DNA of 60,910 nt, the filler included. It is 14 parts of 14 records of this genome, joined end to end, with 100 filler letters (N's around TTAATTAATTAA, not from the genome) between each part and the next. Parts side by side here need not be neighbours in the genome. Positions count along the whole stretch, not along the records: positions 14,129 to 19,453 come from SRR7504441_103422; 13 more parts are not named here. One strand, written 5' to 3'. Shown one piece after another: positions 14,129 through 16,236 of this stretch (its first letter is position 1; the number at the start of each line of letters is the position of its first letter). A program made the translations under genes and the position numbers. Below the pieces are notes generated by a model. It did no database searches, had not been told where the DNA came from, and saw nothing but the letters and a program-made list of their open reading frames with translations.

Positions 14129-16236
14129 CCCCAACAAATGAAGGGCCATTCACCGGGCCGACTAGCTCACCTTAGCCGCCACGTTCAGGATGCCGTTGGC
14201 ATCCACGTCGAACTTGACCTCGATCTTTGGCACGCCACGCGGGGCCGGAGGAATCCCATCCAACTGGAATTTGCCCAGCAAGTTGTTGTCTTTCGTAAAC
14301 ATCCGCTCGCCTTCAAACACTTGGATCGCCACCCCAGGTTGATTATCCTGGTATGTAGAAAACACCTGCACAGCGCCACCAGTTGGATTAGCCTCTATCA
14401 GGAACTGACCTGGGTCTTGTCACACGGAATGGTCGTGTTCCGCTCGATCAGTCCAGTCATCACACCACCCGCCGTCTCTGCACGCGCGCTGCTGAGCTGA
14501 GTATGCTTCAGCCTAGCGCACCGAGCCCGAGGGTGAGCGGCGTCACATCCAGCAACACAATGTCCTTCACCTTTGAGCCTGTCTCAAGCCGGCTCTAGCT
14601 GCTGTCACCTTGGAGCCGGCCTGGCCACTCAGCACCGCCGCCTGAATCGCGGCGCCATAGGCCACGGCCTCGTCGGCATTGATCGACTTATTGGGCTCCT
14701 TCCCAAAGTATTGGGCTATCGACTGCTGGACGCGTGGGATTCGAGTCGAACCGCCCACCAGCACCACCTGCGACCCTCGTTGAGTGCACGCCGCACCCCG
14801 CCCGCACCGCGTCAACGGCCTTCGCCTCGGCCCCTCCGTCCTTAAGCACCTGCCAACCAGCTCGGCGGCCGCACAGGACTGGAACTGCCTTTTGCACACA
14901 GTCCATGGCCTTCTTGAACGAGGGAGCACAGATCTCTTCGAATTTAGCTCGAGACAAGTCGTACCTGCCGCTCGCTCAGCTCCAACTGAGCTGGGCAGCG
15001 GCACGTGTAGTCAACTCCATCGAGCAGCGAGTCAACGTCGAGTGTGACCCGTTGCATTGAGGAGAGCTCCTTCTTAGCCCGATCGCACTGCTCCCACAGC
15101 CGCTGCATCGCGCGGTCGTTTCTGCCACGCAAGCTCAGACGCGCGCTGCGCGCACCCACCCGCGAATCTGCTTGCCCTTGTTTTTCTTCTCAAAGTCGTC
15201 CGCTAGGAACTCCACCAATCCGTTAGTAAAGTCTTGCCCTCCGAGGTGTGTGTCGCCTGCAGTAGCTTTGACCTGTCCTCACATCCAGCCCAGCCCGCCA
15301 GACCCGACCTCGAACACCCCGCCCTCCACTTCAAGCAGCGTGGCGTCAAACGTGCCGCCTGCCCCCAGCTCACCCCGGCCGGCCCTTCCCTGCACCGCCC
15401 ATATCGTATACCAGCACTGTCTTGGAGCCTTGATCTGATTTGTCCAGCCCGTACGCAATCGCCGCAGCCGTCGGCTCGTTAATGATCCGCAGCACGTTCA
15501 GCCCGCAGATCTGGGCCGCGTCCTTGGTGGCTTGCCGCTGAGCGTCGTTGAAGTAGGCCGGCACTGTCACCACTGCGTCGCTCACCGGGTGTCCCAGGAA
15601 CGCCTGCCACTGGCTCGCCCGGCACACCCGGCCCGGCGCCTCGGCGGTCTGCTTCATCTTATCCAGCACCATTGCCGAGATCTCCTCCGGGTGCATCCGC
15701 TTGGTCTGGCCCTGCATGCCGACTGAGCCGGCCTGGGCGCCGGGTGGCCGCCGCCTGGTAGGTGACTTCGATCATCGCCTTGCCGTCTGGGCCCGACACA
15801 ACCTTGAACGGCCACAGCTTGCCGTCGGCCTGGACGGTCGCGTCGTCCGCCCGTCGCCCGATCAGCCGCTTGGCGTCGTACACGGTGTTCTGAGGGTTGC
15901 GCGCGATTTGGCTCTTTGCCGCCGCCCCGACCAGCCGCTCCGACTCTGTGAAGGCGACCATCGAGGGCGTGGTACGCTGGCCCTCCGAGTTGGGGATGAT
16001 GAGCACCTGCGCCCGGCCTGAGCCGGGGCGGCCGGTGGGCGCACCCCGTCGTCTTTCCAGACCCCGACACACGAGAAGGTGGTGCCCAGGTCGATCCCGA
16101 TCGCCACCTTGGGCTGGTCCTGGCAGTGCGCCGGCCCAAACAGCAGCGAGAACGAGCCGCCGCTCGAGCCGAGCAGCCCCGCGCCCGCCGCGCAGGTGGC
16201 CAGCCGCCGGGTGGCCAGCCTCGAGAGAGTCCACAT
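14129..16236 (-). CDS. HSP70: Hsp70 of cytosolic type with N-terminal extension; 12 complete introns, 3' truncated
   Basis: [77 protein letters not shown]. Confidence 0.95.

Follow-up and report, generated by a model that had tools for sequence, protein, structure and literature searches.

Short introns of 36-44 nt, an estimated 15-25% of which begin with GC instead of GT, interrupt the genes of the DNA analysed here, the source of which is a compact, GC-rich marine eukaryote. The window, i.e., the whole stretch under analysis (60,910 bases), consists of 14 contigs of 3-6 kb and 13 identical linkers (in each, a 12-base word that gives a stop in every frame stands between two blocks of 44 N; the first linker is at 5739-5838), so that no feature can be read across the joins. 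It represents a fragmentary assembly, probably from a metagenome bin. The introns exist, GC donors are frequent among them, an exonic AG is enriched at the GC donors, and three introns, including one of the GC-AG type, are found spliced in RNA. With a probability of roughly three in four, we regard the GC-AG mini-introns as ordinary major-type (U2-type) spliceosomal introns that are shaped by G+C pressure and by compensation on the exon side of the donor; the roles of U1/U5, of mutation pressure and of intron definition in this explanation are inferred.

The partial Hsp70 gene on the minus strand (Table 1) contains 12 complete introns of 36-44 nt, nine GT-AG and three GC-AG. A 13th donor (GTGAGC) opens an intron from 14170 downward that is truncated by the contig end at 14129, and the spliced product is open over 531 residues up to this donor. 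A protein-to-DNA spliced alignment, run without preference for any splice dinucleotide, interrupted the conserved part of the protein at 12 places, by 35-49 nt each, and added four spurious introns in the non-homologous N-terminus; even when GT was given a bonus of 6 score units, two of three references kept GC at 15712-15754 and 15604-15639. The boundaries were also scored against a profile of 88 full-length homologues, using 4596 in-frame variants with shifts of no more than 18 nt per boundary. None of the nine GT-AG registers scores more than 2.5 bits below the best variant, and all three GC-AG registers fall in the top class. An earlier note on this DNA, referred to here as the original prediction, had counted three GC-AG introns among the 12 complete Hsp70 introns; alignments and profile scoring bear this out, with 14850-14888 as a probable case.

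One exon of the MBOAT-family acyltransferase gene on the plus strand matched seven relatives at 65-70% identity, all of them transcriptome-derived and six carrying the Pfam MBOAT domain (PF03062). Spliced alignment without site preference placed one intron exactly at 58862-58902 and another at 58501-58538, a register equivalent to 58503-58540, and when 4481 boundary variants were then scored, the eight GT-AG introns of the gene came out at or near the top. All ten intervals that had been listed as GC-AG introns (the three of Hsp70, which is encoded on the minus strand, and seven plus-strand ones) indeed start with GC and end with AG on their strand, and all ten were recovered by a gene finder with equal priors for the donor classes (see below). 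In the arylsulfatase gene, the exon before 39158-39197 covers Sulfatase profile positions 1-67 and has nine residues left over, and the next exon begins at position 75; further downstream, the match to 1fsu_A (N-acetylgalactosamine-4-sulfatase) begins at residue 2 of the exon after 39959-40000, and the list of open reading frames (ORFs) places an in-frame stop inside this interval, just before 39995. Continuity of the sulfatase exons thus backs both predicted introns in part; a PDB search with a 28-residue sulfatase exon returned nothing significant. In the gene with LisH and WD40 domains, the LisH_TPL match reaches the last residue of the exon before 48603-48641 (profile positions 4-26 of 31), and the interval sits upstream of the likely start of the minus-strand arginase-family gene. 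A PDB search with the read-through LisH region gave nothing significant, and among protein representatives, where giant multi-WD40 proteins crowded the WD40 matches, no orthologue of this gene was obtained. The product spliced at 1499-1536 retains, by reading, the GTPase motifs of a Ras-like protein.

Table 1. Genes and introns of the window with the evidence for each (a slash marks the exon-intron border; exon letters in lower case; nats, gene-finder support)
Feature	Position	Strand	Length, phase and borders	Evidence and remarks
Hsp70 gene, partial	14171-16236	-	13 exons; ATG at 16236	Pfam HSP70 on exon ORFs; spliced alignments
GC-AG intron, Hsp70	15712-15754	-	43 nt, phase 0, cag/GCGGCG...GCAG/gg	RNA joint; best GT-AG alternative -17.2 bits
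GC-AG intron, Hsp70	15604-15639	-	36 nt, phase 0, gag/GCGCCG...GCAG/gc	GT-AG alternative -8.3 bits, 24 nt long
Probable GC-AG intron, Hsp70	14850-14888	-	39 nt, phase 0, aag/GCAGTT...GCAG/gt	Top register class; GT-AG 14841-14879 scores -5.6 bits
GT-AG intron, Hsp70	16007-16044	-	38 nt, GTGCGC	Alignment; profile scoring
GT-AG intron, Hsp70	15359-15395	-	37 nt, GTGCAG	Alignment; profile scoring
GT-AG intron, Hsp70	15273-15308	-	36 nt, GTCGGG	Profile scoring; loose end of X4 contig
GT-AG intron, Hsp70	15122-15159	-	38 nt, GTGGGT	RNA contigs X1 and X4; profile scoring
GT-AG intron, Hsp70	14965-15004	-	40 nt, GTGCCG	Alignment; profile scoring
GT-AG intron, Hsp70	14768-14807	-	40 nt, GTGCGG	Alignment; profile scoring
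GT-AG intron 10, Hsp70	14571-14608	-	38 nt, GTGACA	Spliced product; profile scoring
GT-AG intron, Hsp70	14478-14521	-	44 nt, GTGCGC	Alignment; profile scoring
GT-AG intron, Hsp70	14366-14409	-	44 nt, GTCAGT	Alignment; profile scoring
MBOAT-family acyltransferase gene	58336-60382	+		11 introns: 8 GT-AG, 2 firm GC-AG, 1 weak GC-AG
GC-AG intron, MBOAT	58503-58540	+	38 nt, phase 0, aag/GCGCGC	Best-scoring register; no frame-keeping GT-AG variant within 18 nt; 16.5 nats
GC-AG intron, MBOAT	58862-58902	+	41 nt, phase 0, aag/GCGCCC	Best GT-AG alternative -14.5 bits
Possible GC-AG intron, MBOAT	59122-59164	+	43 nt, cgg/GCGAGT	Variable insert; GT-AG variant -4.4 bits, GA-AG variant -0.7 bits
GC-AG intron, arylsulfatase gene	39158-39197	+	40 nt	Pfam Sulfatase continuity; 6.3 nats
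Putative GC-AG intron, arylsulfatase gene	39959-40000	+	42 nt	In-frame stop inside; homology on acceptor side only
GC-AG intron, LisH-WD40 gene	48603-48641	+	39 nt	12.2 nats; LisH match
Predicted GC-AG intron, Ras-like GTPase gene	1499-1536	+	38 nt	Gene finder only, 3.7 nats
Predicted GC-AG intron, small coiled-coil gene	52365-52400	+	36 nt	Gene finder only, 4.5 nats
Additional GC-AG intron, protein kinase gene	4853-4892	-	40 nt	10.9 nats, signal score 10.8; behind Pkinase domain, beyond Pfam check
Additional GC-AG intron, gene of unknown family	44540-44580	+	41 nt, gag/GCGCGC	8.5 nats
Additional GC-AG intron	45065-45107	+	43 nt, cag/GCGCCG	4.0 nats
Arp2-like gene	55408-56946	-	introns of 36-54 nt	Gene finder; 9 predicted introns, all GT-AG
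Proteasome alpha subunit gene	16922-17707	+	no intron	Pfam; divergent neighbour of Hsp70
GH95-like ORF	28651-31533	-	961 residues	GH95 catalytic-domain match; fills whole contig; intronless unlike intron-rich neighbours

Evidence from RNA was obtained by placing contigs of four marine metatranscriptome runs (X1-X4, from four studies) on the Hsp70 contig. A contig of X4 (depth 10.1, no mismatches) and one of X1 both skip 15122-15159 (joint 15121/15160), which has GT..AG ends on the minus strand. An X1 contig of 151 nt (depth 3.3, one mismatch per piece) skips 43 bases at 15710/15754 with four ambiguous letters, and among the five registers possible there, only 15712-15754 has GY..AG ends, namely GC..AG on the minus strand. 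The fit of this same contig ends at 15637, three bases beyond the donor of 15604-15639, with 19 letters remaining; the intron and the exon that follows it both read GCG at this point, and the stop is consistent with what RNA spliced at 15604-15639 would give. Behind 15274, the X4 contig carries 17 loose letters that equal positions 15311-15327 in a by-eye comparison, which confirms the GT-AG intron at 15273-15308 and shows a GC call of the gene finder at 15257-15298 to be false. No RNA contig covers 14841-15018 (which includes 14850-14888), 16265-16798 or 18401-19453. Further joints in X2 (15561/15637, 15576/15647, 15579/15801 and 16000/16076) were rejected, as foreign or unknown letters stand between their sides and the sides are 20-24 letters long; these, and the likewise short-sided X2 joint 15689/15855, were read as Hsp70 of other organisms.

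Two further observations concern the Hsp70 gene itself. An N-terminal extension of about 45 residues (16102-16236, minus strand) precedes the conserved start, and the best-matching homologues (from dinoflagellates, MMETSP and EukProt) are extended as well, which points to an organelle-targeted paralogue of the cytosolic type. Plus-strand ORFs at 15439-16018, lying precisely antisense to Hsp70 exons, match the Pfam family NAD-GH (PF10712; E=5e-20 and 6e-9), a family suspected to consist of antisense Hsp70 translations.

For the window as a whole, the frequency of GC donors was estimated with a gene finder that scores donor positions -3 to -1 and +3 to +8, a branch motif, the acceptor context and intron length, never donor position +2, and that gives GT, GC, GA and GG donors equal priors. 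Its signals were seeded with the 12 Hsp70 introns, carried through five training rounds on all predicted introns and retrained on 56 GT-AG introns only; the support of an intron is the score lost (in nats) once exactly this intron is forbidden. The kept gene models contain 126 introns (GT 79, GC 31, GA 10, GG 6), of which 64, 17, 4 and 2, respectively, have a support of at least 2 nats, 48, 9, 1 and 1 of at least 4 nats, and 30, 6, 0 and 0 of at least 6 nats. With four false-positive regions dropped, 113 introns remain (GT 76, GC 26, GA 6, GG 5), so that GC donors are far above the GA and GG controls and more frequent than by chance. When a GT-only model was extended by GC, the score rose by 245 nats, compared to 39-172 nats for each of the 14 other dinucleotides, although part of this gain is expected because GC is also the commonest dinucleotide. 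The three best-modelled genes, with 9-12 introns each, all but two of about 40 nt, contain GC donors in about one sixth of their introns (5 or 6 of 32: Hsp70 3/12, MBOAT 2 or 3/11, Arp2-like 0/9). From these counts, the GC-AG share is put at about 15-25%, and the claim that such introns are frequent here is upheld. The predicted GA-AG introns with a support of 2.6-4.4 nats (54578-54613 and 26762-26803 on the plus strand, 18118-18156 on the minus strand) may, like the other GA-AG calls, be noise, their number (6/113) being about that of the GG control. Two other approaches were abandoned: without splice signals, GT-only, GC-only and GG-only versions of the gene finder reach similar totals and do not separate the donor classes, and a signal-only scan of all 16x16 end dinucleotides (threshold 10: GT-AG 35, GC-AG 6, others up to 12) was indecisive on GC-AG, because signals outside the dinucleotides are too weak in GC-rich DNA.

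The introns of both donor classes share one anatomy. Among GT and GC introns with a support of at least 2 nats, 79/81 measure 36-44 nt, a figure that is partly circular as the length prior was learned, and the same range holds for 22/23 introns of the checked genes. Acceptors follow the layout GCAG/G, and a putative branch-site motif, CTSAG, stands about 12-14 nt before the 3' end of the intron: YT[GC]A[GCT] occurs at -24 to -7 in 44/102 predicted introns compared to 7.4 in shuffles (again partly circular, since the model rewards the motif), and about 7/12 Hsp70 introns show CTSAG or CTCAA by eye. The donor consensus is (C/A)AG/GTGCGC, and its intronic part, G[T/C]GCSC, is common to both classes and far from GTRAGT. 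GT donors have G at +3 in 77-83%, C at +4 in 51-61%, G at +5 in 54-58% and C at +6 in 50-58%; their commonest first six letters are GTGCGC, GTGCCC and GTGGGC, and those of GC donors are GCGCCC, GCGCGC and GCGGGC. The ten GC introns listed originally had been described as starting mostly with GCGCCC, GCGCGC or GCGGCG, in agreement with the letters found (GCGCCC three times, GCGCGC twice, and GCGGCG, GCGCCG, GCGAGT, GCAGTT and GCAAGC once each). The accompanying statement that GC donors match U1 poorly is correct in that only 2/14 better-supported ones fit GC[AG]AGT, but this is no peculiarity of GC donors: only 1/62 GT donors fits G[TC][AG]AGT, and of the nine positions of CAG/GTRAGT, GT donors match 5.3 on average and GC donors 5.1.

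What distinguishes the GC donors is the exon side, where the lost match at +2 is made up. An exonic AG precedes 11/14 GC but only 20/62 GT donors (Fisher p=0.002), 9/9 compared to 16/46 at a support of at least 4 nats, and 5/5 compared to 6/17 in the checked Hsp70 and MBOAT introns (leaving out the weak 59122-59164, which follows CGG). It also stands before all ten of the originally listed GC donors, as had been asserted, and 12/14 GC introns are in phase 0. Classical GC-AG introns, which account for about 1% of introns in animals, plants and fungi, compensate by a near-perfect AG/GCAAGT. Like these, the introns described here are probably U2-type, start with GC, end with AG and appear to compensate at other donor positions; they differ in that the exonic AG alone is kept, with an intronic side of GCGCSC as in GT donors, and in a frequency more than ten times higher. 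The original prediction had proposed recognition by exonic AG plus intron length; the first part agrees with the enrichment of AG, and the second is plausible given the narrow length range.

These observations can be combined into a proposed mechanism. Introns in this lineage are held near the smallest size that still works (36-44 nt) and at a very high G+C content, and a strong G+C pressure would drive T to C at donor position +2. Intron G+C (72-77%) is like that of third codon positions (76-85%) and unlike that of second positions (38-42%), which fits such a pressure. C at +2 would then be tolerated mainly after an exonic AG, because AG would restore the lost U1 (and U5) contact on the exon side, leaving total complementarity to a canonical U1 about equal for GC and GT donors. 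With introns so short and constant in length, and with a branch site close by, the spliceosome would be able to define each intron as one unit.

Alternatively, the snRNAs themselves might have changed: a divergent U1 and/or U6 pairing with G/GYGCSC would recognise GT and GC donors equally well, and the mismatch would exist only relative to the canonical U1. The low number of donors that fit G[TC][AG]AGT agrees with this proposal, as does the C at +4 and at +6, which departs from the canonical A and T in both donor classes, and the diplonemid Sulcionema specki is reported to have a second U1 whose 5' end is altered (PMC12621601, available text). Yet compensation via a canonical U1 predicts just such an excess of exonic AG at GC donors, and the putative U1 of GC-AG-rich algae, namely Aureococcus and two Micromonas, is described as identical to the consensus at its 5' end (Iwata and Gotoh, 2011; PMC3033335, available text), so that we consider a divergent U1 or U6, the other option offered by the original prediction, unlikely. 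The window itself contains no Rfam RNA gene, and hence no snRNA gene, at the gathering score or at E up to 1. A bolder variant would have an undescribed, deep-branching marine eukaryote whose spliceosome reads G/GYGCSC in 36-44-nt introns of 75% G+C, with T and C at +2 nearly interchangeable by virtue of a changed U1 (or U6), or with U1 pairing beyond +3 given up in favour of length and exonic AG; this, too, appears improbable.

Several points weigh against the explanation by compensation and G+C pressure. The enrichment of exonic AG may be inflated, as the donor support score prefers CAG, even though the same bias acts on GT donors. RNA joints cover only 3/12 Hsp70 introns, one of them GC-AG, and this sole GC-AG junction in RNA comes from the one 151-nt contig of depth 3.3 in a single run. 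The gene finder made the GC call contradicted by RNA and built false genes antisense to the arginase, leucine-rich-repeat, rhomboid and proteasome genes, so that the window-wide GC fraction is rough, and its support measure is conservative and uneven, giving an RNA-confirmed intron only 0.8 nats. It could be argued that most GC-AG calls are artefacts of modelling, i.e., that nearby GT donors are used, that the segments are retained, or that assembly or strain differences put C for T. This would suit 14850-14888, where a GT-AG alternative of equal length is just 5.6 bits worse, the weakly supported 59122-59164, the false GC call, and 48603-48641, where 39 nt without a stop make retention formally possible. 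On the other hand, GT-AG alternatives are 8.3-17.2 bits worse or nonexistent at five introns, four of them besides the one whose GC-AG junction is present in RNA; 7/10 listed introns are not multiples of three, and 39959-40000 contains an in-frame stop. The GA and GG control donors remain low, and random T/C errors would not select sites after an exonic AG. We therefore judge an artefactual origin of most GC-AG calls to be very unlikely.

Other kinds of intron were also considered. None of 102 predicted introns has a U12-type donor ([AG]TATCC) or the branch site TCCTTAAC. Copy families of the introner type were not found either: among the 102 introns, five reciprocal pairs share exact words of 12-13 nt, with no full-length similarity. 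A removal that is guided by structure and independent of U1, as in the nonconventional introns of euglenids, hemistasiid diplonemids and Amoebophrya, would be conceivable in view of the end consensuses, since +3 to +8 (GCGCCC) is complementary to -8 to -3 (GGGTGC), and of the medians of 37-42 nt given for the introns of three diplonemids, Diplonema japonicum, Sulcionema specki and Artemidia motanka (PMC12621601, available text). The ends of the same intron, however, pair no better than the ends of different introns (3.10-3.36 of 6 positions paired compared to 3.12-3.32 in permuted pairs, p=0.39-0.77), and a terminal helix was rejected. The borders are uniformly GY-AG in all 102 introns, and the branch-like motif, with the partial circularity mentioned above, exceeds its frequency in shuffles. 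Diplonemid mRNAs carry a spliced leader; the proteasome transcript shows no sign of one at its 5' end, nor do two relatives have a 5' word in common. Removal without U1 is thus extremely improbable. The likeness to diplonemids with introns of about 40 nt is limited to the narrow length distribution in marine protists: hemistasiid introns have mostly noncanonical borders with end-to-end pairing, which was not found here, and the named protein relatives do not indicate Euglenozoa.

That GC donors can be common in GC-rich marine protists has been described before. In the available text of Iwata and Gotoh (2011; PMC3033335), the overall share of GC-AG introns is 1.3%, whereas it reaches 39.6% in Aureococcus anophagefferens, 22.2% in Micromonas pusilla and 7.7% in one Chlorella; a high share is tied there to G+C content. 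The premise of the original prediction that GC-AG introns are normally a small minority was thus too general, GC-rich algae being known exceptions. For Emiliania huxleyi, about 60% GC, 37-40% GT and about 4% GA donors are reported, some of them confirmed by RT-PCR (Feldmesser et al., 2014; PMC4028052, available text); the GA share recalls the 6/113 GA calls made here. In the pelagophytes Aureococcus and Pelagomonas, according to the text available, GC-AG introns amount to about 14-17%, with introns averaging 103-177 bp and fewer than one per gene (bioRxiv 10.1101/2024.10.30.620910), in contrast to 36-44 nt and about 9-12 introns per gene in the three best-modelled genes of the window. The organism under study resembles A. 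anophagefferens, M. pusilla CCMP1545, E. huxleyi and Pelagomonas calceolata in being GC-rich, in having abundant GC donors, which range across this group from a tenth to over half of all introns, and in keeping AG acceptors, but the G+C content of its window is 60%, compared to 64-70% in the GC-AG-rich algae. Like Amoebophrya, Micromonas and Aureococcus, marine protists with introners or noncanonical introns (PMC7789003, available text), it has many unusual introns; introners, however, form repeated families with terminal repeats, whereas the introns here form no families and are all GY-AG.

Particular to the present case are introns of about 40 nt at high density, a G+C content of only 60% and the lack of named close relatives. 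Word searches of open-access text did not find this exact combination described, although supplementary species tables may hold closer precedents. The lineage would join a short list of those with common GC donors, at lower G+C and with far shorter introns, and adds a data point on whether G+C pressure alone explains common GC donors. By itself it opens no new question, as the same puzzle was posed for Aureococcus and Micromonas in 2011. In practical terms, a gene finder set up for introns of the usual length with GT-AG borders would break up most of the genes here, and protein catalogues from such metagenome bins would be fragmentary.

As to the identity of the organism, words of the Hsp70 contig are shared only with marine metatranscriptomes and a few marine DNA runs, each with at most 0.17 of the words. 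The highest identity among relatives of the Hsp70 protein, which include dinoflagellates, MMETSP and EukProt, is 76%; relatives of the proteasome protein at 81-88% identity are all environmental or EukProt transcriptomes, named matches having at most 60%. Judging by these environmental relatives, the organism probably belongs to none of the Aureococcus, Micromonas, Emiliania and Pelagomonas lineages. The nucleotide records of three close matches (71-86% identity) are 1.1-1.6 kb long, two ending in an A run; they were read as transcripts and therefore offer no introns for comparison.

A Pfam search of 272 stop-to-stop ORFs of the window identified, on the minus strand, Hsp70, a protein kinase, a leucine-rich-repeat protein, the GH95-like ORF, an arginase-family enzyme, a histidine phosphatase, an actin-related protein and a rhomboid, and on the plus strand a proteasome alpha subunit, RCC1 repeats, a sulfatase and a WD40 protein. 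Pfam Actin matches on five exon ORFs of the Arp2-like gene run in profile order along the minus strand. For the GH95-like ORF, an intronless gene, a horizontally acquired one and a wrongly binned bacterial contig are all conceivable. At 22001-26000, where there are no Pfam matches, G+C is only 0.50-0.51, compared to 0.55-0.69 elsewhere.

Two pairs of genes are arranged divergently at close distance. In one, the arginase-family gene (47375-48340, minus strand) lies next to the LisH-WD40 gene (48510-50340, plus strand); the stop-to-stop ORF of the arginase extends about 330 nt past the likely start of the gene and into the first exons of the LisH-WD40 gene, an overlap that misled the gene finder. 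In the other, Hsp70 (minus) and the proteasome alpha subunit gene (plus) are separated by 685 bp (16237-16921). RNA contigs of all four runs span 16898-17649 of the proteasome gene with no joint, and contigs of this gene start at about 16884-16898 on the genomic sequence, corresponding to a 5' untranslated region (UTR) of about 25-40 nt. The encoded proteasome protein ends in a C-terminal run of Asp and Glu.

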